Source of the DNA: a virus
Taxonomy: Duplodnaviria > Caudoviricetes
DNA length: 64,000 bases
Virus record (IMG/VR): IMGVR_UViG_3300027819_000006
Direction: 5' to 3' (one strand)
Every line of letters begins with the position of its first letter. The stretch's first letter is position 1. A program made the position numbers and the translations under genes. Below are positions 2,416-61,235 of the stretch, piece by piece. The notes below the pieces were generated by a model that worked only from the letters and a program-made list of their open reading frames with translations, was not told the origin of the DNA and ran no database searches.

Positions 2416-3024
2416 TTATTTTTCTAAGAATAGATTACACTGATGAATTTCAAAAGCTTGTTTGCATGTGTTTTTACATGTCTTGCATAGCTTTGCTTCT
2501 TTTATCCAGAAATAATAGTTTGATACTTCTTCTAGTACTTTGTTATAATCTATCTCTGTAAATTCATCTGAAACTTTGAGTCTATATATTAGCTTCCATC
2601 CAGTATCTGTTTTCTCTAATATATCTCCAACGTTGAAACTTATATTTTCTTCTGCAAGTTCACTTTTTGATAATCTGTAGAATGTCTCATTTAAAAAGTC
2701 TAATAAGATATAACCTCTTTTTATTGGCACATTGAAAAAGAAGTCAGAAACTTTAATGCATAGAAGAGTAGTCTTTATGTCAAATTTTTTATACTCTAAA
2801 TAGATAGGTTTCAAATTAGTGTTCTTTGAATCACGTTTCTGTTCATTTATGATTTCTTTATGAGCACTTTTAAATTTAGAGACTACACTTTTAACATTTT
2901 CTGTAAAAAATCCACTTCTCAGACTATAAAAATGACTCTTGACAGCTTTGTTTTTTGAATCTACTGGATGCACATCTATTAATTCTAATCTATCCACCAG
3001 TGTGGTACTGTTCTTCTTGTCCAT
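2416..3024 (-). CDS. hypothetical protein
   Basis: 202-aa ORF with C-terminal CxxCxxxC. Confidence 0.6.
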   Translation of the reverse strand: MDKKNSTTLVDRLELIDVHPVDSKNKAVKSHFYSLRSGFFTENVKSVVSKFKSAHKEIINEQKRDSKNTNLKPIYLEYKKFDIKTTLLCIKVSDFFFNVPIKRGYILLDFLNETFYRLSKSELAEENISFNVGDILEKTDTGWKLIYRLKVSDEFTEIDYNKVLEEVSNYYFWIKEAKLCKTCKNTCKQAFEIHQCNLFLEK

Positions 3025-3455
3025 TTTGCTAAATGTCTCTTTTCTTTGTTGTAGTAGTTTCTATATGATTCAACAGCATTTTCTGTTTTGCAATAATCAG
3101 GCATGCATAGAGGAACAGATGTTAGCTCTTCTGAATCAAATTTCAGCAAACGTTTGTTGCTATCAACCCATTCTAATATTTTAGAACAAGCATGAATCTT
3201 GCCATATCTAAAAGTGTATTCATAACATATGTTCTGTGCTAATTTTAACAATAGATTAAAATTTTTTAAACTGTGTCTACACCATTTAGAGCAAGGATGA
3301 TTTTTATGTACTAATTTGTATGGAGCTTCTAAATTCTGCAACCAGAAAGCTGAGCATAACATCTGACAACTTTCAATCTGCATTTTAAGAATGTGGCGGT
3401 CAACATAGAATCTGACCGCCAATTCAGGATTTTCATCTAGATAGAATACATTCAT
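2985..3455 (-). CDS. Pyrimidine-dimer DNA glycosylase / endonuclease V-like protein
   Basis: MNVFYLD..P, KMQIESCQMLCSA, HKNHPCSKW and YRNYY motifs typical of the phage family. Confidence 0.65.
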   Translation of the reverse strand: MNVFYLDENPELAVRFYVDRHILKMQIESCQMLCSAFWLQNLEAPYKLVHKNHPCSKWCRHSLKNFNLLLKLAQNICYEYTFRYGKIHACSKILEWVDSNKRLLKFDSEELTSVPLCMPDYCKTENAVESYRNYYNKEKRHLAKWTRRTVPHWWID

Positions 3456-3459
3456 CTGT

Positions 3460-4257
3460 TTAGAATCTTACTTTAAATCCATTACCATAGAATTGAATCT
3501 TATCATCATGCTTCTTATGTCCAAAAATCAGAGCATCAACAATATTCATTGCATAGATGCCCGCTGCCACATAAGTAGCTCCTCTGCGATAAGTCTTCCA
3601 ATCCTGTCCCTTGAAATTATTTTTCTCAAGTACATAGCAAGTGCCTGCTGCTAGACCTGCAAGAGTTGCTGTAGTTGCATAGAATACTCCTGGTCCAACT
3701 CTACCCTGTCTGATCTGTCCCCATCCAGGATATACAGCACTATGGACAACTGCATCGAATCGATATGCAATTCCCTTGCCTACACTTGCAATAAGAGAGG
3801 GACTATTCTTCTGCTTCTTAAATAGAATATAGTAATGCTGAGCAGCCTTTCCATTCTGAGCAGAAACTTCTGTATAATCAGCAACAAAAGCCAACCCATT
3901 CAATTTTGCTGCATTAAATACGACTGTAGCTTCTGTGGCAAGACTCTCTGCTTGAGCAGTAACTTTTACATAGTCTACAAGATTATCAGTCGATCCTTGC
4001 TGTGTTGCCATAATATATTTACGTACAGCATCTACACGAGCTTTCAGCTTTGCTTGCTCATAATTGACATCAATTGCATCTCCTTTATAATAGTCAAAAT
4101 AATCACTATTGGGAAGTGCATAAACCCATTTAGGAGCTGTAATTACATTAACTACTGTATTTTGATTTTGCTGAAAATTGTAATATGGTTGAGCATCTGT
4201 CTTTGAAGAAACAAAAACTGTCAGCATAAGTGCTGATGCAACAATAAACTTTTTCAT
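3460..4257 (-). CDS. Secreted/membrane protein
   Basis: Signal peptide MKKFIVASALMLTVFVSS; SAVYPGWGQ followed by hydrophobic helices. Confidence 0.6.
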   Translation of the reverse strand: MKKFIVASALMLTVFVSSKTDAQPYYNFQQNQNTVVNVITAPKWVYALPNSDYFDYYKGDAIDVNYEQAKLKARVDAVRKYIMATQQGSTDNLVDYVKVTAQAESLATEATVVFNAAKLNGLAFVADYTEVSAQNGKAAQHYYILFKKQKNSPSLIASVGKGIAYRFDAVVHSAVYPGWGQIRQGRVGPGVFYATTATLAGLAAGTCYVLEKNNFKGQDWKTYRRGATYVAAGIYAMNIVDALIFGHKKHDDKIQFYGNGFKVRF

Positions 4258-4269
4258 CTGAATTCTCCT

Positions 4270-4941
4270 TTAGCGTTTTAATCGTTTCTCAACTATGTCA
4301 TTACGCTTCTTTTTATATTCTTCAGGCATAATTTCATCTTCTGCATTTTCATCTAGCAATTCATCTTCTAATTTTACTGCTTCTTTACCTATTGCATCAG
4401 ACCATAGATCTTTATATTTTAACTTTAAGCATTCTATTTCTAATGCCAATTCTTTTTTTTCTTTCTGTCTGTTTTTGTTTGTTTGTTTCAGTAACCTTTT
4501 CTTTTCGCACTCTTCCTCCTTTCTAAGATCATTTAATGCTTGACACCTGTCTAAATCTAATTTAAGAACTTCTATTGTAGCATCATCGTCTAAAAATAAA
4601 CATTTAGTTGTTGCATATCTATCTTTACTATATTTTCTATATAGAAAAACATCATAACAAGAACTTCTATTATTTATAACTGATAGAAATTGATAAAAAT
4701 CATTTTTAGTAATCTTAAATTTATATAATTCATGGCTAATCAAAAAATTTACGTTTCTGTCGGAGAAAATATCTAGCTCTACATAGTGGGCTAAACATTT
4801 CTTCCAATTTTTACCACCATAAAATCTGTTTACAATTCCAACTTTTGCTATTGAACCTGTAACATAGTCACCAAATTCTAGCTGAGCAATTTTATGTTTA
4901 ATAGAATGATCTATAATCTCGTTAGTATAGAGCCATTTCAT
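4270..4941 (-). CDS. hypothetical protein
   Basis: 223-aa ORF with charged C-terminus, downstream of a predicted promoter. Confidence 0.6.
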   Translation of the reverse strand: MKWLYTNEIIDHSIKHKIAQLEFGDYVTGSIAKVGIVNRFYGGKNWKKCLAHYVELDIFSDRNVNFLISHELYKFKITKNDFYQFLSVINNRSSCYDVFLYRKYSKDRYATTKCLFLDDDATIEVLKLDLDRCQALNDLRKEEECEKKRLLKQTNKNRQKEKKELALEIECLKLKYKDLWSDAIGKEAVKLEDELLDENAEDEIMPEEYKKKRNDIVEKRLKR

Positions 4942-4973
4942 GAGTTATATCAACCTTTCTTTTTATATAGTTA

Positions 4974-5002
4974 AATATAAACAATCTATGTTATAAAGTA
5001 AA
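4974..5002 (-). promoter_or_regulatory. sigma70-like early promoter
   Basis: Minus strand TTTACT-17 nt-TATATT; the same motif recurs 7 times in the window. Confidence 0.75.
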
Positions 5003-5005
5003 CAA

Positions 5006-6139
5006 TTATTTCACAATTATACCAATATTTTTTATATAATCATATCCATGATCAAGTAGCCATTTTTTCATCTTTTTACTTACCCATATTTCTGATATTG
5101 TGGCTGATAGCTTTCCTGTATCTACTATAACTTCATTTTGCCCATGAAACTGAAATTGTTTCTTAGTTTCATAACTCAATTCTGTAAAATCTATTATAAC
5201 TTGTTCTGGTTTTATACTTGTGCACACTAAAAAATTTATAGAATTTAAAGACATAGTGAATGTTTTTGCTATTTGTGGTGTAGTGCTCCAAGAAGATTCT
5301 TTACCTCTAGATAATAATATTTTGTTGCCGACATAAATATCTTCTATATTTTTTAATCCTATATATTTTTTTATTTTTTTTAAAATATATTCTATAGTAG
5401 CTTCTTCGTAACTTACTATATCATCAATATCTAATCCGAATCCTCTATATATTTTTTTTGATTCATATTGCTTTGATAAATTTGTTTTAAGCCACTCTTT
5501 TACACCTTTATTCATTTTTACTTCTGCACTGTTTGTATATTTTTTCAATTCATCCACTACAAATTTAGGGAATTCTATATCTATATTTGAATCTTTTGAA
5601 AATCTTTTTAGCATCCCATCTATTAAAGTTAAATTGTTTTTTATTTTTTCAAAATCAGCCCACATAGTAGGATGCTCATCATTTATTGTTTTGTAATTTA
5701 TAAATCCATCATAATAATTTAAAAATTCTTCAGAAATTCTTTGCATAATTTCATTTGTAATATTTAAATTTCCCATTTTGAGTTTTTCATATATATATGT
5801 TATCAGTGATTCATTGTCTATATCGAGATTATAATATGATTTTATATTTTCAGACTCTATTATGTTTTTGTTTAAAGCATTTCTAAATTCTCTAATATTT
5901 TTTATGTCGAATAAATTCAAGATTTTATCAGATTTATAAATAAAATTATATGATGGTCTAGCCATTGAAAAACTAGCAATATTTTTTTTAAAAGACATAT
6001 AATCTTTTTTGTCCACTATTTGTATATATTTTCCTAATTCTAGTTCATAATTCTGTAAATTATCAATTGATGATTTTAAATAAATATATGAATATCCAAT
6101 TTGGTGTTCTATCAATAGTTGTTTTAATCTCAATTTCAA
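5006..6139 (-). CDS. Putative ADP-ribosyltransferase-fold protein (R-S-E type)
   Basis: IYRG ... ESSWSTTPQIAKTF ... QNEVIV in the expected order and spacing. Confidence 0.5.
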   Translation of the reverse strand: MKLRLKQLLIEHQIGYSYIYLKSSIDNLQNYELELGKYIQIVDKKDYMSFKKNIASFSMARPSYNFIYKSDKILNLFDIKNIREFRNALNKNIIESENIKSYYNLDIDNESLITYIYEKLKMGNLNITNEIMQRISEEFLNYYDGFINYKTINDEHPTMWADFEKIKNNLTLIDGMLKRFSKDSNIDIEFPKFVVDELKKYTNSAEVKMNKGVKEWLKTNLSKQYESKKIYRGFGLDIDDIVSYEEATIEYILKKIKKYIGLKNIEDIYVGNKILLSRGKESSWSTTPQIAKTFTMSLNSINFLVCTSIKPEQVIIDFTELSYETKKQFQFHGQNEVIVDTGKLSATISEIWVSKKMKKWLLDHGYDYIKNIGIIVK

Positions 6140-27452: not shown

Positions 27453-28550
27453 AATGTGTTATTGTTCTTCGAATATCCATATTGCCAAGATGTATCAAAA
27501 TCATAAAAAGTATCTATCCATTTATCTACTTTCTGTTGAGATAGATCATCTTCTACTGTTAAATATCTTGTTGTAACTGCATTGAATGTTGGTTCTACTG
27601 AAAATGTTTTTTCTATTGAGTCTATTGCTGCGAGGCTTATATTTGGTTCAAGAAGCTGTATAAGTTCTTGATTTTGTTGAAGTGTTGCTATATTTTCTTC
27701 TGTTATGTACTTTTCATATCTCTTATTTATTTTGCTCTCCTGTTTAGCATATTGTACAATATCGTTGATCTCATATTTTCTTTCAGAAGACAGAAATGGA
27801 AAATCTTTCAACACTGTTTTCTCACCTACTCTTGGTATTCCTTTGATATTATCAGCATCTCCAGTAAAGCATTTTATTATGATATAATTCTGAGGATAAC
27901 ATTTAACATAATTAACTAAATAGTTGTATGTGATTATTTCACCATATGTTTTTAAATTATCCCCTTTCTTATTTAAAACTGGAGTTGCTTCTTTTGTTAA
28001 ATCTTTTCCAATTGCTATATTCCCATCTAATATGTCGTTTGCTAATATGTTTCTTTTTACTGGTCTCAACAATTTAGTATGCTTATCTATTAGCTGATAG
28101 TAATCTCTATCAGTAGATAGAATTATTTTTTCATAATTGCTACTTTTAAATACTTTGTTACAGCTATATGCTATGACATCATCTGCTTCTAGATAGTCTA
28201 TACTGAACTGGTAAAATGGAAATGAATTGACATATTTTTTCAATCTTATCAATTCACTTTTTATTGCTGCTCTTTCAACATCTGGATCAGTAAACATTTT
28301 TCTATTAAATCCTGAACTTTTGCGCCCTGCTTTATATTCTGCTAATAGTTTTCTTCTTCTTTCTGCTGAACCCTTGCCTTCCCAATAGAAACATACTATA
28401 TCAGGTTTTAATCTATTCATAACTCCTAATATGCTATCTATAGAAGTTATATATCCTCCTGTATGTTCACCATTATCATTACATAGAGAAGAAGCGCAAA
28501 AATTTCTAAAAAAAAAGGTTCATGCTATCAATTAACAGCACTGTTTTCAA
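27440..28550 (-). CDS. 5'-3' exonuclease / flap endonuclease (Pol I N-terminal type); frameshift in the A9 run at 28508-28516
   Basis: TTG start at 28550 gives MKTVLLIDSMNL; removing one T joins it to FFRNF...EADDVIA...STDRD...GDADNIKGIPRVGEKT. Confidence 0.85.
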
Positions 28551-29404
28551 TTATATTATTCTCCATTCTTTATGAATTTCATTATCCCAAATACGTATCA
28601 ATTTATATCCATACTTTTTTGCTAACTGGTTTTTATATTCATCATTTTTCATTATTTCTTGCCACATCTTAGGTCTACATTCTTCATATCTAGCATGCCA
28701 ACAACAACCATCTAATTCAATCAATGTATTATAATCAATTAAAAATCATAACATTTATTTTCTAATCTATATTGCTGTTTGAAATTTATGTTCATACTTT
28801 TTAATATTTCTTTAACTTCTAGTTCTGGCTTAGATATCGATACATTATGGTGAGTAGATAAATAATTCAATCTAGCATCTGACATTTTAAGCTTAGATGC
28901 TTCAGAATGTGCTCTTCCATAAGCAGCTGATAATTCACCAGTTAGGCCATACTGCGAATGATTTTCTCCTCTCAGATGATCATTACAGTACTGATCCCAT
29001 ACTTTAACTCCTTCAACTTCTCCGAATGTTTTAAATATAAAAGATTTTTGACTGTGATGTTTACTTCCTTTCTTCATATTAGCTTTATGCTCTTCAGTTT
29101 TCTCCTTTCCTTTCATTGAAAGACTGATTTTATTTCTAGAAAAATCAGAAGTTATTTCAGCTAATTCAAATTTTGTTAAATATTCAGCTGTTGTCATATT
29201 ATGTTTATCTAACAAGTGTTGAGCATTTACTCTTCTGAATTTTTCATGACATATTAAGCATTCGACAGTTCTTTCTATATCATTTATTTTATTTTCTGCT
29301 TTTATTTCAGCTTGACAATCTTTACATATTCCACATTTATTTGTTACTCCTAATGGTTTAATTTTACATACAGAGCATCTTTCATTATTCTTAAATCCTC
29401 TCAT
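28551..29404 (-). CDS. NUMOD3 + Vsr/DUF559 endonuclease (frameshift near 28741-28745)
   Basis: SKPELEV...CYDF, continuing in a shifted frame as LIDYNTLIELDGCCWH...LIRIWD...EWRII*. Confidence 0.8.
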
Positions 29405-29506: not shown

Positions 29507-29536
29507 TATATAAATATACTATGAGAAATAAAAGAA

Positions 29537-29590
29537 TTACAAATTATGAGAATCTACTAAAAGTATTGTTCTTTTTGAATTGTTGTCCAT
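29537..29590 (-). pseudogene. Truncated duplicate N-terminus of the 5'-3' exonuclease
   Basis: AAGGAG RBS then MDNNSKRTILLVDSHNL*; compare MKTVLLIDSMNL at 28550. Confidence 0.75.
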
Positions 29591-29649
29591 TAAACTCCTT
29601 GTATTTATAAATATCACTTTCAAAGCTTATAAGACATGAAGAACAAACT

Positions 29650-30315: not shown

Positions 30316-31082
30316 ATTATGGCTGAGCTTGTATCGCCAAAACGCATCTTGTTCAGTAATTAAATTAGCTTTCTATCTCTCAAACAATTTAGAAATAAAA
30401 TAATCGCTGGGCCAAATGCTGCATACACAAAAGAATAAATTAATCCCCATTGATGGCTCATGCTATAGAAAAATAACAGAGCATATAGAATAGCATTGAG
30501 AGCACAATAATATCCTGAGTACATTATTCAGCCCTTCATATCAAATGTAGACTCATACATAGTTCTCATCTTAGCATCTATGAAGCTCTGAGATGACCAT
30601 AGAACAAACTTAAGTCTTTGTTTATATAATCTATTTAACTTAGCTTTATAGTTGATCAGATGTACATCTTTGATCATCTAGTTAACTATGGTTAACATAG
30701 CTACAACTTCATTGTTATGCAAGAATACTTTGTAGTCAGAAATTGTTACATTTTCCATGTGCACATTGTTGTGATTCTTTACTCCAAAATCTAAAATTCC
30801 ATTCATTCTCTGTGTTAACTCTTCGTAGTTTTTACATTTCAGTTGCAGATAAAAAGTGCTGTTCATTTATTCTCCTTTCTGAGTGTTAATTTAGATCAAC
30901 TCCTACAACATCGACAGGATAACGTGCAATATTCACTACAACCTTCTTCCGAGGATTCAGTTTAGAAGACTTTGTCATCTGAACAATCTTCATGCCGTTG
31001 ACAATTGTTTGTGAGAAATGGATATTTGTAGCATTCATTTTTTTAAGTCTCCTATGTGTTAAGTTGTTGCATTCAATGGTTA

Positions 31083-31111
31083 AATATAAACAATCTATGT
31101 TCAAAAGTAAA
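31083..31111 (-). promoter_or_regulatory. sigma70-like early promoter
   Basis: TTTACT-17-TATATT with the conserved spacer ATAGATTGTT. Confidence 0.75.
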
Positions 31112-31117
31112 CAGTTT

Positions 31118-34282: not shown

Positions 34283-34324
34283 TTGAATTCTCCCGTTTAA
34301 GTTATAACCATTTTGTAATGTTTA

Positions 34325-34353
34325 AATATAAACAATCTATGAACGAATGTAAA
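34325..34353 (-). promoter_or_regulatory. sigma70-like early promoter
   Basis: TTTACA-17-TATATT. Confidence 0.75.
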
Positions 34354-34424
34354 CAAAAAAGATTAAACTCCGACAAAATAATTCATCAGAGCTTTTAATT
34401 TTCTACCTTATTCACAGATAAAAT

Positions 34425-34871: not shown

Positions 34872-35300
34872 CTATTTTGATCCCTCAGGAGATTCATCAG
34901 GATCTATGATCTTACCTAAATTTTCAGAAACATGATTTGATGCATTCTGTATCATGTCATTTATCATGGCATTTCCGCCTCCAGGAACTTGTTCTGCTAT
35001 CAGACTAAGTTTGGTTTCTACATCTTGTCTAGCTATAAATCTCTGTAATACCTCAAATAAATATACTTGAGCTTCACAGAAATTAGCTTGTGCACTCTTG
35101 ATTCTCTTACACTGTTCAAGAATTTCCATTGGATCAGTTAAATCTAAAAATTCTCTTTTTGTAGATAGTAATTGTAGAGCTGCATATACGTTGTCTAATT
35201 GGTTTTTGACACTGTCATATATTTGAGTTACAGAACTGATTGTTAGATTAACATCTAATCTTTGTTCTTTATTTACATTTTTACCATTGCTTTTTTTCAT
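34872..35300 (-). CDS. hypothetical protein
   Basis: 142-aa ORF. Confidence 0.55.
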   Translation of the reverse strand: MKKSNGKNVNKEQRLDVNLTISSVTQIYDSVKNQLDNVYAALQLLSTKREFLDLTDPMEILEQCKRIKSAQANFCEAQVYLFEVLQRFIARQDVETKLSLIAEQVPGGGNAMINDMIQNASNHVSENLGKIIDPDESPEGSK

Positions 35301-35318
35301 TATATAGCTTTCTATTTG

Positions 35319-35912
35319 CTAAAATTGTTTAATATATGTGAATGATGCTCTTCTAAGTACTTTGTCAGCATAATTTGTAGTGCTAAATTTGTTTCCTTTA
35401 TTGTATCTCTCTAATGCTCTTACTAGATTATTGTTTTCTATTTTCAGACACCACTCTAAATGATTGATACCTGCTTTCAGATTTTCTTTTGTATTGTACA
35501 GATCATAACCTCTTACTCCATATATTTCAGCTGTAGCAGGTTTTACTTGCATCAGACCACGAGCATTTTTATTAGATTTACTATTTGTATTGAAATCTGA
35601 TTCTATGCTGATAATGCTGAAAACTATTGCAGGATTGATTTTCTTGTTTGTAGACATAAAATAGATGTATATAGCAAGAGTAGTATCAATTTTAAATTCT
35701 TTGGCATAAAGTTTAGATTTATTTATATGTTGTTCGAGTATTTTTGTTCTATGTTCTATGTCCTGTATTTTAGAGTTCAGTTCTGATATCTTTGTATTAT
35801 TTTTATCGATAATTTCTAATTTCTTTATGTAGCTCAAGCTACACACCATAAAGACAAAAATAATAAATACAGATAGAGAAATCTTTATAGTGAATAGAGC
35901 TTTAAACAGCAT
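35319..35912 (-). CDS. Membrane-anchored lytic transglycosylase (SLT)
   Basis: N-terminal TM helix and coiled coil; IESDF, ARGLMQV, ALERYNKG. Confidence 0.85.
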   Translation of the reverse strand: MLFKALFTIKISLSVFIIFVFMVCSLSYIKKLEIIDKNNTKISELNSKIQDIEHRTKILEQHINKSKLYAKEFKIDTTLAIYIYFMSTNKKINPAIVFSIISIESDFNTNSKSNKNARGLMQVKPATAEIYGVRGYDLYNTKENLKAGINHLEWCLKIENNNLVRALERYNKGNKFSTTNYADKVLRRASFTYIKQF

Positions 35913-36636
35913 TTTCTAGAGTAATAAAAAAATCTTTTTCTAAATTTAAATTAGAAGCATGACAAATTCCAGAGCCATTAACAATAGCTAAACGTCTAGC
36001 CTTTACATCAGAAATCCATTTAGGATTTGCAGTTTCTGCTCTTTTAATAGCTATTATAGTAAGTTTTTGAACTTCATCAGTTATATTCTGTTTTACAAAA
36101 GTTTGCAATATATCTAATTTCATTGTATCAGAAATTCCACCTTGCTGTGTTCTCAAATCGAAGAACATCGCTGCCGCTCTTTGAGACTTAACCTGGTATA
36201 TTGGCATCATAGCCAAAGCTTTATCAAATACATTTTTAGCAACTTTCAACTGAATTTGTTGCATTTCATTAGTCTGACCTAATTTATAGAATCTATCTTT
36301 CCATTCTGGTAATATTTTATTATTTGTTTGTATTGCAGCTGACCAAGCTACTTGTGATTGTATATCTGTTTTATTCAACATCTCTTTAAAAGTAGCCGAA
36401 CCATTGCCAAAAATATTATCTACTATAGCACTATGACTCTGAATCATTTCTTTTAAAAGTGGTTGTAATGATCCTTGTCCTAAACAAAATTGTAAACATC
36501 CAAATGAAAAACCTTGTCCGTCAAAATTTCCACTCATGCCACTATAACTTTCAAGTGGCATTTTACCTGTCTCTATAAAACTTGTAAGAGCTACACACTT
36601 CTCTAATAATGTAGAGTCTTTATTTAATCTATTCAT
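35902..36636 (-). CDS. Lysozyme-like peptidoglycan hydrolase (putative endolysin)
   Basis: FIE...YSGMSGNFDGQGFSFGCLQ pattern; adjacent to SLT; ATG at 36636 follows a GGAG RBS. Confidence 0.55.
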   Translation of the reverse strand: MNRLNKDSTLLEKCVALTSFIETGKMPLESYSGMSGNFDGQGFSFGCLQFCLGQGSLQPLLKEMIQSHSAIVDNIFGNGSATFKEMLNKTDIQSQVAWSAAIQTNNKILPEWKDRFYKLGQTNEMQQIQLKVAKNVFDKALAMMPIYQVKSQRAAAMFFDLRTQQGGISDTMKLDILQTFVKQNITDEVQKLTIIAIKRAETANPKWISDVKARRLAIVNGSGICHASNLNLEKDFFITLENAV

Positions 36637-37477
36637 ATAATTCTCCAAAGTTTATTAACATCACTTTCCCATATTCTAACTAATTTATAACCATATTTTT
36701 TAGCTAATTCATTTTTTAATTGATCTATTTCTATTTTTATTTTCTGAAATTCGTTTACTGGTCCATTTGGATAATATTCAGGATTACAATGATGATAATT
36801 GCCGTCTACTTCTACTAGTATATTAAAATCTTGTAAATAAAAATCATAATATCTGTTTTCGATCTTGAATTGATTTTCATACCTAATATTACTTTCTATA
36901 TTTTTTCTACTGATTCTTCTACTTTTGAAGTTCTTCTATGCCAATCTTTAGCTACTTTTTCTTTCCACATTTTTTCAGCTATTTCTATACCAAAACTTTT
37001 AGCCCAAAAATCTTTGACTGTTTTGCCATACATCACATTCTTTGAACCTTTTTTATCATCTGACATTTTTAGCAATCTATCATCTGTATTCTTATTTAAC
37101 CCGTCATTCCAGTTTTTACCACCATTTTCATAAAATAAAATCATGCCTGCAGAAGTTTTATTTCCATGTATTTTTACTCTCTCATCTGTTTCTTTTGTAA
37201 GACCTTTATTCCAAGCACCCGATTTGACAAAACCAATTTTTAAAATGCTATTACGACATCCATAACATCTATTATTAGGTCCTTTCACTTCTTTATTACA
37301 GTCATTTTCTATACATTTATATTTATCTAATTTCAGAATTTCAAACCAATATTTTTTAGAATTTACCTTATGTTTTGCTCCAACATGACCAAATAAAGCA
37401 TTATAGCTTTTGAAAACTTTCTTGCAAATAAAACATGATGGTAGTGGATTATTACTTTTATATTCACTTATATTCAA
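36633..37477 (-). CDS. Zn-finger/NUMOD3 + Vsr endonuclease (frameshift near 36900)
   Basis: WNKGLTKET and WNDGLNKNT repeats; the shifted frame continues YYDFYLQD..LVEVDGNYHH...LVRIWE...LWRII*. Confidence 0.8.
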
Positions 37478-37497
37478 TCTATTTCTCCTATAATAAA

Positions 37498-37583
37498 AGC
37501 CAAGCAATTGTAATCTACAATAGACTATGAATCTAGTAGTTGCTTGGCTCAAACTATTGGTTAAGTTTATTGTAGATTACAAT
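37498..37583 (-). promoter_or_regulatory. Structured two-stem leader, copy 2
   Basis: Inverted repeats 37498-37507/37540-37549 and 37507-37522/37568-37583. Confidence 0.75.
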
Positions 37584-37619
37584 ATAAATATATTTATAAG
37601 AGAAATAAATGCAAATCAC

Positions 37620-37769
37620 TCACTGCTGGATAGGGCCATACGAAATTCCCATGAGATCGAAATTTCCAGAAATGCAGCTGTAACACTCGGGTGGCATCTT
37701 ACTGTTTTCAATAAATCCAGTGAGACAGACTACCTTTTCTAATAGAGATGAATCTTTAGTTAATTTCAA
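37620..37769 (-). pseudogene. Truncated duplicate N-terminus of the lysozyme-like gene
   Basis: MKLTKDSSLLEKVVCLTGFIENSKMPPECYSCISGNFDLMGISYGPIQQ*; 29 of 48 residues identical to the start of 35902..36636. Confidence 0.9.
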
Positions 37770-37815
37770 ATTAACTCTCCATATTAATTGTTCAATATAA
37801 ATATATAATGCTAAT

Positions 37816-38115
37816 CTATAATGTCAGAACAGTATAGTCTCTTAACATTTGTCTGAACGGTGAAACTTTCTTTTTAGGATACAACTCTTCATCAGCTTTC
37901 ACAAAATCTTCATATTGTAGAGTAACAATATTCATATATTCGACATAGTCCATATCTTCTTTATTAACTTTCAGTTGTTTTACTCTTTCATTTTTAATCT
38001 GTACAGCTCTTTCTGCTATTTTTACTCTTTTAGCATAAACTGCGTTATCAAAATGAGCCACAATTGTTGGCATAAAAGCTATCAATATGAAAAGAACAAT
38101 GCAAGCTATGATCAT
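37816..38115 (-). CDS. hypothetical membrane protein
   Basis: N-terminal hydrophobic helix. Confidence 0.55.
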   Translation of the reverse strand: MIIACIVLFILIAFMPTIVAHFDNAVYAKRVKIAERAVQIKNERVKQLKVNKEDMDYVEYMNIVTLQYEDFVKADEELYPKKKVSPFRQMLRDYTVLTL

Positions 38116-38132
38116 TTCTATACTCCTCTTAT

Positions 38133-38181
38133 GTGAACTAATTCCACCTAAAGGTTGGAATCTTTCTTTTTGAAATTTTAT
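38133..38181 (-). mobile_element. 49-bp left-end/right-end relic of the IS605-like element at 59599..60995
   Basis: TCAAAAAGAAAGATTCC matches the element left end; CCTTTAGGTGGAATTAGTTCAC matches the right end; preceded by TTAC. Confidence 0.7.
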
Positions 38182-38558
38182 GTAAAATAAGCAATTGCTA
38201 AATAGTTACACAACAAATGAAATGTATTATCTGTAACAATGTAGACTAACCACTTAATAGATTCTATTCTGTCTGATCTCAGACCAGTGATTTCACAAAC
38301 TTTATGTTCATCAATACAATCTACATACATGTTTCTGAATTTGCAGAAAAATTTAGCCAATGAAAATCTATCTAGAATGAAATGACTGCTGAAAATTAGC
38401 AATACAGAAGCATAAGATAGATGTAGAAAATAAGCAAATGGAAGACTATATGTTATACAGTGAGTAATACAGATAAGAGAATCTTTAGACTTGTTTAAAG
38501 CCATTCTCTCAGTTTGCAACAGATAGTCTCCAACTAGATGACAGAGTAATTGTAACAT
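38178..38558 (-). CDS. DUF3307-like membrane protein
   Basis: CHLVGDYLLQ, HCITY, HFILDR, DNTFH. Confidence 0.7.
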   Translation of the reverse strand: MLQLLCHLVGDYLLQTERMALNKSKDSLICITHCITYSLPFAYFLHLSYASVLLIFSSHFILDRFSLAKFFCKFRNMYVDCIDEHKVCEITGLRSDRIESIKWLVYIVTDNTFHLLCNYLAIAYFT

Positions 38559-38756
38559 TTAATCTCTCTTCTTGATTATTGTTATATCTAGTGCAGTTTT
38601 CAAATAAAACATGACTGCAGGAATTGGTCCAATTACTAGAGAAATCAATATAGTAAAAATTATATCAAACAACGTTAAATCATACTTTTTTGAATCAGAT
38701 ATGATATTGAATGCAATTCCAGATATAGCCCATATAATATAAAGTAAGATTGACAT
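38559..38756 (-). CDS. small membrane protein
   Basis: Two hydrophobic helices. Confidence 0.5.
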   Translation of the reverse strand: MSILLYIIWAISGIAFNIISDSKKYDLTLFDIIFTILISLVIGPIPAVMFYLKTALDITIIKKRD

Positions 38757-39640: not shown

Positions 39641-39842
39641 TTTTAATCCTTGTCATAAAATCTACAACAGCTACAGAAATATTTTGTAACAATTCTAATA
39701 GTTGTGTTTTAATTTTATCGTTGAAATCTTTAGAATCAAAAATGTAAGCGTTCATTTTCTTTATTTCATCTGGAATAGTTATAAGATTCTCAGACATAGC
39801 TGACTCCTTTGAAAGTTTTTAGCAACCATTTTGTAATGTTTA

Positions 39843-39871
39843 AATATAAACAATTTGCTATGAAAAGTAAA
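39843..39871 (-). promoter_or_regulatory. sigma70-like early promoter
   Basis: TTTACT-17-TATATT. Confidence 0.7.
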
Positions 39872-39880
39872 CAGATATTT

Positions 39881-40048
39881 TTAAACATCAATTATGGACT
39901 CTAAATAGTAATTTGGTAACATATCTTTGTTCATTTTCAAAATATTGTTAAAACATGAATCTAAAATGTAAGTATTTGCATAATCTGTATCATTTCTTAT
40001 AGATCTACCGCAGCCTTGAAGTATCTCGACGATCGTCTTCCACTGATA
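39881..40048 (-). pseudogene. Orphan duplicate C-terminus of the DinG-like helicase
   Basis: YQWKTIVEILQGCGRSIRNDTDYANTYILDSCFNNILKMNKDMLPNYYLESIIDV*; 36 of 55 residues identical to the end of 41364..42977. Confidence 0.92.
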
Positions 40049-40052
40049 ATTG

Positions 40053-41237
40053 CTATTTGCAGCTGCTTTCTTTGTCAGAGGGATTATAAACTCCTCTGTG
40101 CAGAATGTTTAAAGCAGCATTATAGTCTGCATCTAAACTTAGACCGCATTCCAGACATAAAAATTTATCTAATTTCCTATTTTCTTTATGTTTGAATCCA
40201 CATGAAGAACATTCCTGACTAGTATAGAAAGAAGAAACTTTCTTCAACTCTATACCCTGTTCTTCACACATCGACTGTAATTTTGAAATAGTTTTTGTAT
40301 AAGACCAATATTGCATTTTATTATTCATTTTCTTAGAATATTTTGATTTGTGTTTTACATTTTTCAAATCTTCTAAAACAACAATGGAGTTATTATAAAA
40401 ATCAATTTTATTGCATATTTCATTGATCTTATTATCTTTAAAAATAAGATATTGCTTATAATTTATAGACCCTCGTTTCATATTTGATAATTTAGTATAC
40501 AATTGTTTCATTTCTACACCATAGACATCATTGTTTGAAGAAACTAGAAGCTTATCATACCCGATGTCAAAAGCAACAGCAGCTTGCTGTTGTTTCAGCA
40601 TTATTTCTTTTTCATAAATAAATGTAATATAAAAATTACCATGTATTTTTCTTAGCAATATCGTATTTTTTCTATTCCAATTTTTGTATTTTAAAGATTG
40701 TTTATGTTGTTTGATAGGTAGATTAATTTTAAAAGCTCTTCTTTTGCTTTTTAAATATGGTAATTTTATGCCTATAAATTCATCAAAATGAGATGAAGAT
40801 TTATCATAACTTATAATTCTATAATCCATATTTATGCATATGTTTTTTATATTGATTCGTATTCTTGAAAATATATGATTTAATCGAAGCTCTGAAAATC
40901 TTTTACTCAGAAATTTTAACTGTCTATTATTTTTAGCGAAATATTTATAGCATTTTTTATATCTACTATATCTTTTATTTCTAGCATATCTAATATTAGA
41001 GCGTATTATTTCAGAAGCTTGTTTATGTATTATCTGTTTCCATCTTGAGTGTATTATTATGTTTGAGCTAACAGATTCAAAAAATTTAGCACTATTTAAG
41101 TCTGGTTTTTGCTTCAATATTTGTTCTATATAAAATATAAGATCTGTTTTATAGTCTTCAAAAACTTGCTCTAGCTGCTCTATCTTATTCTTATTAGAAA
41201 ATTTTAAAATGTGAGTGCTGCTTCTTTTTATAATCAA
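40053..41237 (-). CDS. tnpB: TnpB / Cas12f-like RNA-guided nuclease
   Basis: RuvC-I AFDIG, RuvC-II VLEDL, Zn finger CSSC..CLEC, RuvC-III DADYNAALNI; no tnpA nearby. Confidence 0.9.
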   Translation of the reverse strand: MIIKRSSTHILKFSNKNKIEQLEQVFEDYKTDLIFYIEQILKQKPDLNSAKFFESVSSNIIIHSRWKQIIHKQASEIIRSNIRYARNKRYSRYKKCYKYFAKNNRQLKFLSKRFSELRLNHIFSRIRINIKNICINMDYRIISYDKSSSHFDEFIGIKLPYLKSKRRAFKINLPIKQHKQSLKYKNWNRKNTILLRKIHGNFYITFIYEKEIMLKQQQAAVAFDIGYDKLLVSSNNDVYGVEMKQLYTKLSNMKRGSINYKQYLIFKDNKINEICNKIDFYNNSIVVLEDLKNVKHKSKYSKKMNNKMQYWSYTKTISKLQSMCEEQGIELKKVSSFYTSQECSSCGFKHKENRKLDKFLCLECGLSLDADYNAALNILHRGVYNPSDKESSCK

Positions 41238-41363: not shown

Positions 41364-42977
41364 CTAAGCATCTATTATGGCATCTAAAAAATATTTTGGA
41401 AATAAATTTTTGTTCATTTTTAGCATATTATCGAAACAGGAGTCTAGAATGTAAGTTTTAGCATAATCATTTTCACTCCTTATAGATCTACCATAAGACT
41501 GTAATATTTCTGCTACAGATTTCCATTGATACCAGTCAGGCATAGTTTTCAATCTTTTCTTTACTTTTGGTGATGCTAAATTTGGAAATGGCACTTTGAC
41601 TATAATCTGAAATCTAGACAAGTCGTCTTTCAAATCTATACCATTTGTCATAGACGGAGATACAATCACTGAAGCATTTGTTGATTCATAATGCTCTTGT
41701 AGCTTGTCTTCTCTGTCATCTATATCGTGAAATATCAATCTATCATTATCAATACTGTGCATAATGATATTAGATATTTCGTAGCTATTAGTATGAATTA
41801 TGCCTTTTTCATTTTTGTGCTTATTCAAAATTGTATTTATAACTTGAGGTAAGTCTTTATAAGTATCATGTTTCTCTCTGTATGACAGCTTACCGATATC
41901 TAAATTGTACACCAATCTATTCTTGACTTCAAATGGAGAATCTAGACTCATATATGCTACATCTTGTTTTAGACCCATGTAATTTTTGAAGAAATTTTTA
42001 TTAAGAATAGTACCAGACATGAATATTACATGATCATAGTTCTTCCATATCATTTCTAGATGATCTTTGCCCCAGACTAATTCTGTTTTCAACACAGTCA
42101 AACCATCTTTATCTTTCTCTTTATAAAATACCCATTTTTCTGTATTATCTTCAGATTCATTTATAAATCTGTTAAATTTACAAATTACTTTATCTAAAAA
42201 TGAATAATCTTTTAATATTTTCAATTTTACATTTTGCACTGCAGCTAACTTGCATTGTTCTTTCAATTCTTTGTATCTAATATTTAAAACTGGTATTAGA
42301 TCATCAGTTACAAATTTAATATAAGTTTCTATTGATCCAATTCTATCAAGCTTAGACAGAAGTCTTGCATTTTTTATACCCCATCTGTTCATAGAACTTC
42401 TAGATATTGTGGAAGAAATGAATTCACAGAACACTTCTTCAAATGAATGTGCTTCATCTACGAATAGAACATTAGAACATCTTTTTTCTATAAATGTTGG
42501 AACATATATTAAATATGATAAGTAGACATGAAAATTTGCTAAACCCACTTTAGCATTTAAAAATTCTTCATATGCAGCTTTAGATGGACAGAAACTGCAT
42601 TCTGTTTTATTGAGCTTGTTTAAATCTTGTCCATCATCACAAGTCAGATTCCATTTTTCGCAGTTATAGTTATTCTTACCTTTGATACTTCTGATGAAAT
42701 CAAAATCAGCAGTATATTGATTTTGTAGAATTTTAGTATTAGTTAGAATATCAAATTTAGCATTTTTATCTATATTCTCAACATACCACTTCATTGCCAT
42801 GACAGCAAAATAACTCTTACCACACCCTACAGAAACGTCTAATAATAAAAATTTCTTCTTAGAATTGATTGACTCTTTGAAGAAATTTAACATCTGGTCT
42901 TGTTGCTGTCTTGGATTATGCTTTAGAGTGATCATAGAAAATAAATGAATGCACCTATTATAGGAATTTTGCTCCAT
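41364..42977 (-). CDS. DinG/XPD-like SF2 helicase
   Basis: VGCGKS, VDEAH, FMSGT, IIHTNSY, GIDL, KVPFP, QSYGRSIR. Confidence 0.88.
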   Translation of the reverse strand: MEQNSYNRCIHLFSMITLKHNPRQQQDQMLNFFKESINSKKKFLLLDVSVGCGKSYFAVMAMKWYVENIDKNAKFDILTNTKILQNQYTADFDFIRSIKGKNNYNCEKWNLTCDDGQDLNKLNKTECSFCPSKAAYEEFLNAKVGLANFHVYLSYLIYVPTFIEKRCSNVLFVDEAHSFEEVFCEFISSTISRSSMNRWGIKNARLLSKLDRIGSIETYIKFVTDDLIPVLNIRYKELKEQCKLAAVQNVKLKILKDYSFLDKVICKFNRFINESEDNTEKWVFYKEKDKDGLTVLKTELVWGKDHLEMIWKNYDHVIFMSGTILNKNFFKNYMGLKQDVAYMSLDSPFEVKNRLVYNLDIGKLSYREKHDTYKDLPQVINTILNKHKNEKGIIHTNSYEISNIIMHSIDNDRLIFHDIDDREDKLQEHYESTNASVIVSPSMTNGIDLKDDLSRFQIIVKVPFPNLASPKVKKRLKTMPDWYQWKSVAEILQSYGRSIRSENDYAKTYILDSCFDNMLKMNKNLFPKYFLDAIIDA

Positions 42978-46415: not shown

Positions 46416-46449
46416 ATATAAATATACTCTTGGAGAAAAATAGTACATT

Positions 46450-46508
46450 TTAAGGTTGTAACTTTGCCTCATCGCCTGCCTCCCCTCATAGACGCAATCT
46501 ACATACAT
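46450..46508 (-). pseudogene. Truncated duplicate N-terminus of purA
   Basis: MYVDCVYEG, then after a 1-nt slip AGDEAKLQP*; compare MIKFVDAVIGIDKGDESKGK. Confidence 0.65.
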
Positions 46509-46512
46509 GCTT

Positions 46513-52619: not shown

Positions 52620-53411
52620 CTATTTTAGAAATTTATCATGAGTAGTTAAATTAAGTCCTCTTTTTACTAGTGAATCTAAAACTTTATTTGTATTATCCTC
52701 AAATCCAGGAATAATAGAACAACAATCTTTCACTAGATGTATTTTTTGAATATTCTCTTCTCCAAAATTGGCACAAATGTCGATCAAACTATACAATACG
52801 CAATGTGATAAAGCTTCGCCATAGAACCCAATTACATCGGCTCTCTGTAAAGTCTCAATTAATCTAACATTTAATTGAGTTGAGGGATCGTTTGAGTCAG
52901 GGACATCTGCAACCAACACACCAAAATGTTCCGTCGTGTAGTTGCTCCCCTTGGTAACGTAATCTACCATAGCAACTCCTTTTTCCCATTCAAGAAGCTG
53001 TTCTGCTACTGGAGAGATAACTGTAGCTCCGACGGACCCTATGAGGCAATGCGGTGGCCAAATACAAAGTTTATATCTGCCATTCTTTGCCAATGTCTCA
53101 GTATATGTTAGCATCTTTTGTGTTTCAGCAGGATTTGAAGGTTTCCATACTCCATTTTTTACATCTTCATAAGAAATAATAGTAAATGGATTCGGATGAT
53201 TTCCTTTTGAGTCTACCCAGAAAATAGGATGTGCTACGTCGTAGAAATGATGAGTATCTAGCGTTACATGGTAGTCATCTACTCTGTCTCGAATTCTTTC
53301 CATCATTTTAACCATTCTCAAAACATCTTGATCAGCACCAGGAACAAATAGCTCTCCACTTGGTGAACAAAATGATACCTGTGTGTCGATCATTAAACAT
53401 TCTATTTTCAT
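52620..53411 (-). CDS. pncA: Nicotinamidase (isochorismatase family)
   Basis: IDTQVSF, TLDTH, WPPHC, TKG, GEALSHCV. Confidence 0.85.
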   Translation of the reverse strand: MKIECLMIDTQVSFCSPSGELFVPGADQDVLRMVKMMERIRDRVDDYHVTLDTHHFYDVAHPIFWVDSKGNHPNPFTIISYEDVKNGVWKPSNPAETQKMLTYTETLAKNGRYKLCIWPPHCLIGSVGATVISPVAEQLLEWEKGVAMVDYVTKGSNYTTEHFGVLVADVPDSNDPSTQLNVRLIETLQRADVIGFYGEALSHCVLYSLIDICANFGEENIQKIHLVKDCCSIIPGFEDNTNKVLDSLVKRGLNLTTHDKFLK

Positions 53412-54295
53412 ATTAGTCTCCATATTAATTTAACTTCATCTTCCCAGACTCTAACTATTCTATCTATAACCATTGTTTTTAGCAACATTATTTTTATTAT
53501 GATCACTGGCAATTCTCTCTTTCCAGTTAAATGGTTTTTATATCCCTCTCTACAATGCCAATAATTTCCATCTACTTCTATAAGTATATTATAATCAATT
53601 AATAAAAAATCATAAACACTATACCTATTAGTGATTTCATCTAATATAAAGAATTGTTTTTTAAAATTTATGTTACACTCTATAAGCAGCTGCTCCATTT
53701 CTAATTCACATTTAGTAGTTTGATATTTTCGATTGCATAAAGATTTAGCAGCAGATAAAGATCTTTTAGCTTTTTCTTCTTCACCCATTACTCTACCTTT
53801 AGTTGTAATACCTCCATCTTGATAAAATTTTTTCAAACCCTCTGATATTTTATTTTTTGTTTCATCAGAACTAATTCTTTCAAAATTCCAGTGTAATTCA
53901 CCAGTTAACCCTTTATTAAATTGTGTTTCAGATATCTTATTGTTTCTTTCTATCCACATCTGCTCAGCTATTTCTATTCCATGTTTTAGAATCCAAATAT
54001 CTAAAACAGATTTTTCAAAAGTTCCATTTCTAGATCCAGAACTTGCACACTTTCTACATCTTACTCCTGCACTCTTTACTTGATTTTCACAATTTTCTTC
54101 TATACAATAATATATACGATGTTTAGGACATTTAAATTCTCCTTTTAAAATTGATTTTTGATATACTCTAGAAGTGCAGTTTTCTTCTGAACAATACGTG
54201 CTATTTACTGCTGAATGATATCCACAAGTGTTTTGGCCTTTTTCAACAGCACGTACACTAGCTTCATTATTGCATTTATCAACGACACATTTCAC
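53408..54295 (-). CDS. Cys-rich/NUMOD3 + Vsr endonuclease
   Basis: GTG start after GGAG; TKCE, YDFLLID, IEVDGNYWH, RVWE, LIWRLI*; compensating indels near 53460-53520. Confidence 0.8.
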   Translation of the reverse strand: MKCVVDKCNNEASVRAVEKGQNTCGYHSAVNSTYCSEENCTSRVYQKSILKGEFKCPKHRIYYCIEENCENQVKSAGVRCRKCASSGSRNGTFEKSVLDIWILKHGIEIAEQMWIERNNKISETQFNKGLTGELHWNFERISSDETKNKISEGLKKFYQDGGITTKGRVMGEEEKAKRSLSAAKSLCNRKYQTTKCELEMEQLLIECNINFKKQFFILDEITNRYSVYDFLLIDYNILIEVDGNYWHCREGYKNHLTGKRELPVIIIKIMLLKTMVIDRIVRVWEDEVKLIWRLI

Positions 54296-54398: not shown

Positions 54399-54518
54399 AT
54401 ATAAATATATTTGACAGAGAAGAAAAGACACTACATTGTAAAACTCCTTTTATTTGGTTGGTTGTTTTGATCTGTCTATTCTATATAATATTTGAGTATA
54501 GTTTTATAAACTCTATTT

Positions 54519-58790: not shown

Positions 58791-58832
58791 ATCAGTAACC
58801 CTTTGTTATAGATTGTTTAGTTCTTATAGTTA

Positions 58833-58861
58833 AATATAAACAATCTATGTTCAAATGTAAA
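58833..58861 (-). promoter_or_regulatory. sigma70-like early promoter
   Basis: TTTACA-17-TATATT. Confidence 0.75.
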
Positions 58862-59028
58862 TAAAAATTTTAGTCTGTATCATGTATTACGTACACTCCT
58901 AAAACCCAAGCAACTATGGATAAGAAAAGCCAACTATCAGAATGTTGAACATACAGAATCAATTTGCACAATACTGGCCATCCTAACATCCATAGAACTA
59001 GAGCAATCTTTTTCATTTTATCTCCGTT

Positions 59029-60995: not shown

Positions 60996-61126
60996 GTAAG
61001 ATAAGTCATGATATGACCATCATCGATCAAAAGATGAACCTTTTCTCTTGTGTCGAAACTAATAATTACTCTATTTAAATTCTTCATTGCAATCTCCTTG
61101 TTTAATTTTATAACCATTTTGTAATA

Positions 61127-61155
61127 AATATAAACAATCTATACTTAAAAGTAAA
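61127..61155 (-). promoter_or_regulatory. sigma70-like early promoter
   Basis: TTTACT-17-TATATT. Confidence 0.75.
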
Positions 61156-61235
61156 CAATTTTGTTCAAATTCCAAAAATAAATGCTGTACTAAAAATTAA
61201 TTAGCACAGCATTTACATTCAACTTCTAACAATCT

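Follow-up and report, generated by a model that had tools for sequence, protein, structure and literature searches.

A probable displaced lysin N-terminus ahead of a homing-endonuclease cassette in a groundwater phage

Homing endonuclease genes that lie between two versions of a gene end have been described in fungal mitochondria, where such mobile open reading frames (mORFs) make gene hybrids in atp6 of Allomyces macrogynus and in atp6, atp9, cox2 and nad3 of Glomus sp. (PMC3630166, citing a 1994 Allomyces report). In these hybrids, an endonuclease open reading frame (ORF) stands between two diverged copies of a gene end: a foreign one, fused to the gene core, and the native one, which is left stranded and is similar to its counterpart in the nearest relative; no splicing is involved (PMC3630166). 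Here we describe a locus of similar build, in which the stranded copy is probably likewise the native one, found at a lysin gene in a 64,000-nucleotide (nt) stretch of viral DNA (IMG/VR record IMGVR_UViG_3300027819_000006), hereafter the window. In it, a 49-codon ORF (the stub) resembling the beginning of the lysin precedes a homing endonuclease gene, which in turn runs into the intact lysin gene. With fair confidence, we take the stub for the original start of the lysin gene, cut off at codon 49/50 by a free-standing homing-endonuclease cassette that brought a replacement N-terminus with it. The evidence that the stub is a displaced N-terminus is strong on the structural side and moderate on the phylogenetic side.

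The lysin locus also departs from the mitochondrial cases. The mORFs replace the 3′ end of a gene, and so the C-terminus, in organelle genomes and encode LAGLIDADG or GIY-YIG enzymes, whereas the lysin cassette affects the 5′ end of a gene in a phage and encodes an enzyme of the Vsr/DUF559 type; in addition, the native ends in Glomus are 91–98% identical to those of the relative, while at the lysin locus the relative is only ~64–69% identical, which makes the assignment weaker (PMC3630166). Unlike the 3′-end mORFs, the lysin cassette supplies a ribosome-binding site (RBS) and a start codon from the nuclease's own last codons. Gene hybrids of the mORF type are thus already known, and we regard the locus as a variant of them, new in affecting a 5′ end, in a phage gene, with a Vsr-type enzyme and an embedded RBS.

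Among phages, the free-standing seg and mob genes of T4-like genomes ('intronless homing'), for which control by hairpins and late promoters is described, share with the lysin cassette their absence from relatives, their start/stop overlaps and a structured leader by a phage promoter (PMC2988022). The T4 elements, however, sit between genes or split them, as mobE does in nrdA of Aeh1, whereas an imported 5′ module appears to have rebuilt the lysin target; the text of that T4 review makes no mention of gene ends that are duplicated or left as remnants (PMC2988022). An excerpted account of the ICP1-like vibriophages describes a situation comparable to that of the phage studied here, in which one lineage has numerous homing endonuclease genes of modular zinc-finger type that adjoin essential genes and mark recombination breakpoints; the families in that excerpt are T5orf172 and HNH and the events are exchange boundaries, and stranded gene starts with replacement modules are not among what it describes (PMC10055350). 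The Vsr-like (EDxHD/DUF559-related) homing endonucleases resemble the lysin cassette in combining a Vsr-type catalytic domain with a mobile endonuclease of phage or metagenomic DNA. Unlike the lysin cassette, I-Bth0305I and the 'fractured gene' endonucleases are reportedly encoded in introns or between the halves of genes split by inteins.

The window is part of a ~272-kb phage-like contig from groundwater metagenomes, and all features of the lysin locus are on its minus strand. Three public assemblies from different sources (L004, L005 and L006) are 100% identical to the window across the locus, and the sequencing runs that match this phage are five DNA runs from groundwater or sediment, with no RNA run among those listed. 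Its genes are those of a large phage, among them genes for a helicase, DnaB, a 5′–3′ exonuclease, an SLT transglycosylase, TnpB and numerous nuclease genes. A DNA search of positions 35300–38600 against 50,697 phage records returned no match, and at the protein level the lysin matched only Thermus phages in the phage records, at ~31% identity. Scans of IMG/VR with the lysin and with a two-sequence alignment gave only relatives of at most 37% identity, too distant for mapping a junction. In a collection of 5.8 billion proteins, the closest lysin homologue, and the sole close one, was a protein (P0002) of 65% identity, which is encoded on three small metagenomic contigs (L001, L002 and L003).

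All three contigs lack a nuclease gene at this site, both ahead of the lysin gene and within it. What precedes their lysin gene is instead a spacer of 237 bp and, beyond it, a TnpB gene in the opposite orientation; L001 is the relative used for the comparisons below. By BLASTN, positions 2631–2814 of L001 (38 nt of leader plus lysin codons 1–48) align to the stub region at 37804–37621 with 68.9% identity, and positions 2816–4963 (codon 50 onwards, the SLT gene and two further genes) align to 36486–34312 with 71.8% identity, so that the alignment jumps from 37621 to 36486. Because the relative aligns to the stub and then to the intact gene, the skipped segment of ~1.13 kb (36487..37619, minus strand) is by alignment an insertion at codon 49/50 relative to L001, and consists of a leader, the nuclease gene and 50 replacement codons. 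The remainder of the lysin gene, from codon 51 to the stop (35902..36486), is collinear with the relative. A three-way alignment puts the switch between ...Y-G-P-x-Q and (W)-C-L-G-Q-G-S-L-Q. A first-pass annotation, made from the letters of the window alone, had proposed to look for a recombination breakpoint near codon 48 and to learn from empty-site relatives which N-terminus goes with the rest of the gene; L001 places the breakpoint at codon 49/50 and aligns its own leader and codons 1–48 with the stub.

The stub (37620..37769) runs from a TTG start to a TGA stop on the minus strand, and on the evidence of the ORF, BLASTP and the L001 alignment it reads as a stranded native lysin N-terminus of 49 codons. 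It is indeed unannotated, as had been claimed: gene calls on the three public assemblies leave it uncalled in all of them, and one calls only an antisense ORF in its place. In a single BLASTP comparison, the stub aligned without gaps to residues 7–53 of the 248-residue lysin ORF, with 29/47 identical and 34/47 positive positions (E = 5e-18), close to the 29/48 identity to the intact lysozyme-like protein first reported. Its C-terminus, ...GISYGPIQQ-stop, lies just past the family motif G-x-S-x-G-x-x-Q and before the invariant G-x-G-S-L-Q-P-L block, so the proposed stop at a G-x-x-Q motif holds as well. The expression signals said to be retained are also in place, namely a GGAG RBS (37777..37780) seven bases ahead of the TTG at 37769 and an exact copy of the promoter-like box TATATTTATA (37796..37805), which would have been the promoter element of the original lysin gene and now precedes the stub. 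The window contains 12 copies of this box where 1.7 would be expected, a count reached in 0/100 shuffles, and a sigma-70-like scan finds a 10/12 site at 37827–37800, in the region of the stub box. The stub keeps the probable catalytic residues E21 and D38, and it carries L-M where all or nearly all homologues have G-Q, as well as N where T is nearly invariant; we read these substitutions as first signs of decay. A scan of Joint Genome Institute (JGI) metagenomes with the 49-residue stub gave 405 pattern matches, of which 0 were confirmed. Separately, the match of a 158-nt contig in a further groundwater run (X4) is confined to 32 nt around the box (37784–37815), with 2 differences and both flanks unlike, which suggests a promoter element common to another genome or locus.

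Downstream of the stub, 27 T-rich nt separate its TGA from a second exact copy of TATATTTATA (37583..37592), which would serve as the cassette's own promoter; the box likewise stands ahead of nuclease genes at 29509, 46417, 51128 and 54400. The left ~120 nt of the cassette (37604–37483) share 71% identity with the beginning of a paralogous cassette (54421–54301). The box is followed by a leader of interleaved inverted repeats (37498..37582), with arms A at 37582–37568, B at 37550–37540, A′ at 37522–37508 and B′ at 37507–37498. The predicted RNA fold of this leader has an energy of −29.8 kcal/mol (z = −4.15, better than 200/200 shuffles), and in four other cassettes of the window the arms differ in sequence while the layout is the same.

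The nuclease gene that follows is in two parts. Part A (36896..37477) bears zinc-finger and NUMOD3-like DNA-binding modules and probably starts at the TTG at 37477, which follows AGGAGA, although its longest ORF begins at 37552; the public assemblies call it as a protein of 193 residues. It has weak Pfam matches to C2H2 zinc fingers and a PHROG match to 'HNH endonuclease' (E = 2e-7), and its distant homologues, which carry NUMOD3, GIY-YIG or DUF559 domains, have only NUMOD3-bearing segments in common with it. Part B (36633..36914), 93 codons in the −1 frame, contains the Vsr-like domain and ends in ...LWRII-stop; it matches PF04480 (DUF559, a Vsr-like PD-(D/E)XK family) with 25.2 bits against a gathering cutoff of 20.6 (36914–36636). 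Overall, the nuclease matches the 'homing endonuclease' and 'HNH endonuclease' PHROG families down to E = 1.5e-12, and the residues E-x-D-G-x3-H ... K-N ... R-x-W are invariant across the five copies in the window. A search of PDB sequences with an intact paralogous nuclease gave no meaningful match, and the relation to Vsr-like enzymes is that indicated by the Pfam family.

The catalytic residues are kept, but the frame of the DNA-binding part does not continue into that of the nuclease domain. By three-frame translation, the break falls at a run of six A residues (36901..36906), where paralogues read through in one frame; one extra A would restore V-E-K-N-I-E-S-N-I-R-Y, and the paralogues in the window read ...V-E-S-I-L-I-E-S-N-I-N-Y... 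at this point. Each of the three public assemblies has the same break. Programmed −1 frameshifting at this run was considered, but simple inactivation is the likelier explanation: the X-XXY-YYZ phase is not the one in which the heptamer lies, and breaks also affect two more genes of the window, a second nuclease gene and an RlaP homologue. The gene thus looks to have been inactivated by the loss of 1 nt in the A-run, unless a −1 slip occurs.

The end of the nuclease gene is coupled to the beginning of the lysin gene. Its last codons, L-W-R-I-I-stop (CTT TGG AGA ATT ATA TGA), contain a GGAG within the W-R codons (36643..36646) as a putative RBS for the restarted lysin, in the arrangement TGGAGAATTATATGA (GGAG, six bases, ATG), and the lysin ATG at 36636 overlaps the nuclease TGA. 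This ATG is most likely the start of the intact lysin (244 residues), rather than the TTG at 36648 (248 residues, ORF 36648..35902). From it extend the 50 replacement codons (36487..36636), which on their divergence from L001 would constitute the imported N-terminus and which include the family invariants E22 and D39.

The function of the lysin is suggested mainly by its predicted structure. The protein of 244 residues had no significant Pfam match, while its homologues often carry PG_binding_1 domains, and an AlphaFold model built with an alignment of 20 sequences reached a predicted local distance difference test (pLDDT) value of 94.7. With this model, Foldseek ranked GH46 chitosanases at the top (E = 1.4e-5, template modelling (TM) score 0.64), followed more weakly by a 4noo chain (Vibrio cholerae type VI secretion self-protection complex; TM 0.45–0.53), and a profile search found the chitosanase 7c6c (E = 3e-4). 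The model and these matches point to a lysozyme-superfamily glycosidase with a GH46 chitosanase/VgrG3-like fold, for which 'lysozyme-like lysin' appears a fair label. E22 and D39 are invariant in 20 homologues and are the probable catalytic pair, both of them within the 50 exchanged codons; the E22/D40 catalytic pair of the Streptomyces N174 GH46 chitosanase would be their counterpart. The homologues with PG_binding_1 domains and the adjacent gene, which encodes an SLT transglycosylase, suggest that the lysin may act on peptidoglycan.

The lysin locus has company in the window. Searches with tblastn found five DUF559-type copies, along with NUMOD-type nuclease genes. Wherever such a gene was checked, the start of its downstream neighbour falls at the nuclease stop or overlaps it, and a stub of that neighbour precedes the cassette box. 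At least four further genes, all on the minus strand, have this succession of stub, stop, box, leader, nuclease and restart. At the 5′–3′ exonuclease gene, a stub of 17 codons (~29545–29600) reads M-D-N-N-S-K-R-T-I-L-L-V-D-S-H-N-L-stop and the restart M-K-T-V-L-L-I-D-S-M-N-L; at purA, the stub has ~18 codons (~46440–46510), is frameshifted and retains a G-D-E-x-K motif; at a RuvC-like gene it has 3 codons (~1018–1029; ATG ATA TTT TAG, with restart M-I-L-G-L-D); and at a nicotinamidase-like gene it is down to 1 codon (~54431–54436), with AAGGAG, seven bases and ATG TAG. Each of these stubs stops right before a T-rich/TATATTTATA element, just upstream of the nuclease cassette. The ATG of the RuvC-like stub overlaps the stop of the resident upstream gene, which identifies the stub as the resident part at that locus. 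The lysin stub is the longest of the set and the only one compared with an empty-site relative.

The coupling seen at the lysin gene also recurs. In 4/4 nuclease copies, the C-terminus W-R-I/L-I/V-stop is spelled TGGAGA..., which puts a GGAG 6–10 nt before the downstream start, and the start overlaps or abuts the nuclease stop; these 3′ ends lie at 276–290, 28551–28565, 36633–36647 (the lysin cassette) and 53408–53422, so that the layout with GGAG in the W-R codons is found in three nuclease copies besides that of the lysin locus. It is tempting to view these elements, at least five in one jumbo phage and best resolved at the lysin locus, as splicing-free 'home-and-rescue' cassettes in which the nuclease brings along a recoded 5′ module of its target gene, its ending W-R-I-I/V-stop acts as a portable Shine–Dalgarno sequence plus start, and the stub is a left homology arm for re-homing and not mere debris, a generalization to which we give slightly less than even credence.

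Two further irregularities were noted in the window. The restarted 5′–3′ exonuclease goes out of frame at a run of nine T residues (28508–28516, minus strand), reading M-K-T-V-L-L-I-D-S-M-N-L-F-F-stop and continuing in another frame, so that either transcriptional slippage rescues the gene or the gene is broken. A second nuclease gene of the DUF559/NUMOD type (28551–29404, minus strand) is interrupted, in pieces of 221 and 57 residues.

The polarity of the exchange has to be considered first, as the intact N-terminus could be the native one and the stub, with its promoter, could have been imported with the nuclease from an L001-like donor. We consider this very unlikely, even though protein identity to the relative is nearly the same for the intact copy (29/48) and the stub (31/48), close to a star phylogeny. 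Over 144 nt (48 codons), identities are 92 between stub and relative, 91 between stub and replacement, and 83 between replacement and relative. The stub and the relative, however, have in common a TTG start 7–8 bases after GGAG (AGGAG in L001), the same N-terminal length and an AT-rich box at a similar distance, and both begin M-x-L-T-K, whereas the intact copy begins M-N-R-L-N-K. Moreover, the intact N-terminus is farther from the relative (57.6% nt identity to L001) than is the gene body (70.3%). The four sister loci argue in the same direction, since there too the nuclease stop is fused to the ATG of the intact copy and the last nuclease codons provide its RBS, and the RuvC-like stub is the resident part. 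The stronger argument appears to us to be physical: the ATGA overlap and the embedded RBS make the fused copy and the nuclease one unit, while the stub is contiguous with the upstream phage genes. The first-pass view of the stub as the displaced original N-terminus is supported by the L001 alignment and by the shared start codon, length and box layout.

A second possibility, which we judge highly improbable, is that the 5′ end of the lysin gene was duplicated in tandem and diverged on the spot, and that the nuclease inserted between the copies independently. The copies are indeed only 1.1 kb apart in the same orientation, and five residues are common to the stub and the intact copy and absent from the relative. 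Their divergence, though, appears as deep as that between the two phage lineages: dN (non-synonymous divergence) is 0.29 for stub and replacement and 0.29–0.35 across the three N-terminal pairs, with synonymous divergence (dS) saturated and, by both NG86 and LWL85, not computable for these pairs, so that no dN/dS ratio is given, and the gene body has a dN of 0.26 and a dS of 1.17. Differences between stub and replacement number 15, 10 and 28 at codon positions 1, 2 and 3 (chi-square 9.8, 2 degrees of freedom, p ~0.008), and this third-position bias implies that most of the divergence arose under coding constraint on both sequences. Over such a span, a copy without function would be expected to lose its open frame and to show no codon-position bias, which argues against a recent local duplication. 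In addition, a maximum likelihood tree of a 46-residue segment with 12 outgroups was resolved as (replacement,(relative, stub)), with a modest ultrafast bootstrap support of 83%; a phylogeny had been suggested as the way to reveal a recent tandem duplication, and this one does not pair the stub with the intact copy. Finally, the nuclease lies exactly between the copies at four other genes, which would make an independent coincidence unlikely. The depth of divergence, the saturated synonymous sites and the third-position bias also favour the earlier suggestion that the replacement came from a distant allele and not from a local duplication.

It is more improbable still that the 49-codon ORF has been retained because it is useful in itself, whether as a small protein or as a translated leader that tunes expression of the nuclease or the lysin. 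Its frame is open, its start, RBS and box are intact, and it is the shortest branch in the three-way distances. Set against this, the ORF extends precisely as far as its homology to the gene, its residues at the conserved G-Q positions are radically changed, and its stop lies 27 nt before the cassette box, uncoupled to any start; the sister stubs, with 1, 3, ~17 and ~18 codons and one of them frameshifted, are also unlike a conserved product. A self-splicing intron that harbours an endonuclease ORF, for which the stub would be a true first exon, is scarcely credible as an account of the 1.13-kb segment: the segment does interrupt the gene cleanly at codon 49/50 relative to L001, but Rfam found no intron at the gathering score in the window and no intron family at E up to 10 in 36300–38000 (nor, at either threshold, any other credible RNA family), the segment ends in a complete, conserved and separately initiated N-terminus that makes splicing unnecessary, and the stub has its own stop and L-M at the (nearly) invariant G-Q.

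Several observations weigh against the displacement of a native N-terminus by a mobile cassette. The junction rests on one comparison, with a single relative of ~70% nt identity; the three N-termini are nearly equidistant, and sites common to two of the three split 6:5:5. No donor was apparent, as searches of the 5.8 billion proteins found only the query itself for residues 1–52 of the intact lysin and nothing close besides itself for the nuclease. Mobility was not observed, in that no nuclease-free variant of this phage occurred among the contigs of four sequencing runs. No contig of these four runs bridged the cassette: three 'joints' turned out to be matches of 28–44 nt to paralogous nuclease genes, and not an empty allele. 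Finally, every assembly shows the nuclease gene with a disrupted frame, and this copy may never cut; given that frame break in every assembly and the other broken genes of the window, the element at the lysin locus is probably fixed and decaying.

If the stub is nevertheless the native 5′ end, as we favour, the following sequence of events can be envisaged. The cassette carries its own promoter-like box, a putative two-state hairpin leader, the modular nuclease gene and 50 differently spelled lysin codons. Its nuclease would cut nuclease-free lysin alleles near codons 49–50, beside the block coding for the conserved G-Q-G-S-L-Q-P-L-L-K-E, in which 18 nt are identical between both lineages. Repair of the break would then use an occupied genome as template and copy the cassette, the stub providing homology on the left and the gene body on the right. 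A gene that already contains the cassette would itself be immune, since one half-site abuts the cassette and the other is recoded; just before the junction, 12/30 nt differ between the replacement and the relative. As the replacement affects a 5′ end, the cassette must supply the translation signals, and as the replacement codons rebuild the N-terminus, including both probable catalytic residues, the gene would be functional without splicing. The stub would mark the probable cleavage site, which makes the nuclease target directly testable.

Such a mechanism would allow a selfish nuclease to invade the coding region of a needed gene with neither intron nor intein, by means of a recoded copy of the part it displaces, a design that parallels engineered 'cleave and rescue' gene drives. 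It would also offer a route for swapping catalytic modules between distant phage lineages, in this case both probable catalytic residues of the lysin, and may account for those short, unannotated ORFs of phages that look like the beginnings of genes. Should the interpretation of the sister loci be correct, home-and-rescue cassettes would be a general 5′-end counterpart of the mitochondrial mORFs and a natural analogue, in phages, of recoded-rescue gene drives; with several cassettes in one window, this phage is well suited to studying them.

Other parts of the window show further rearrangement and decay. Upstream of the lysin locus, a homologue of RlaP (PF10127; 38772–39640, minus strand) is spread over three frames by two 1-nt frameshifts, while the gene on L001 is intact and encodes 296 residues. 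The last 55 codons of the helicase gene (537 residues) are duplicated beyond the TnpB gene at 40053–41237, with copies at 39884–40048 and 41367–41531 (minus strand) that are 65% identical in amino acids and ~79% in nt; this duplication is a 3′-end counterpart of the lysin case in which TnpB takes the place of the homing endonuclease. On L001, TnpB is placed elsewhere, inverted and just upstream of the lysin promoter. Lastly, a family of intergenic repeats of 35–85 nt and 80–94% identity occurs at 39824–39886, 34306–34368, 61076–61158, 58830–58867, 31075–31113 and 4967–5010, and is also found at the end of L001.

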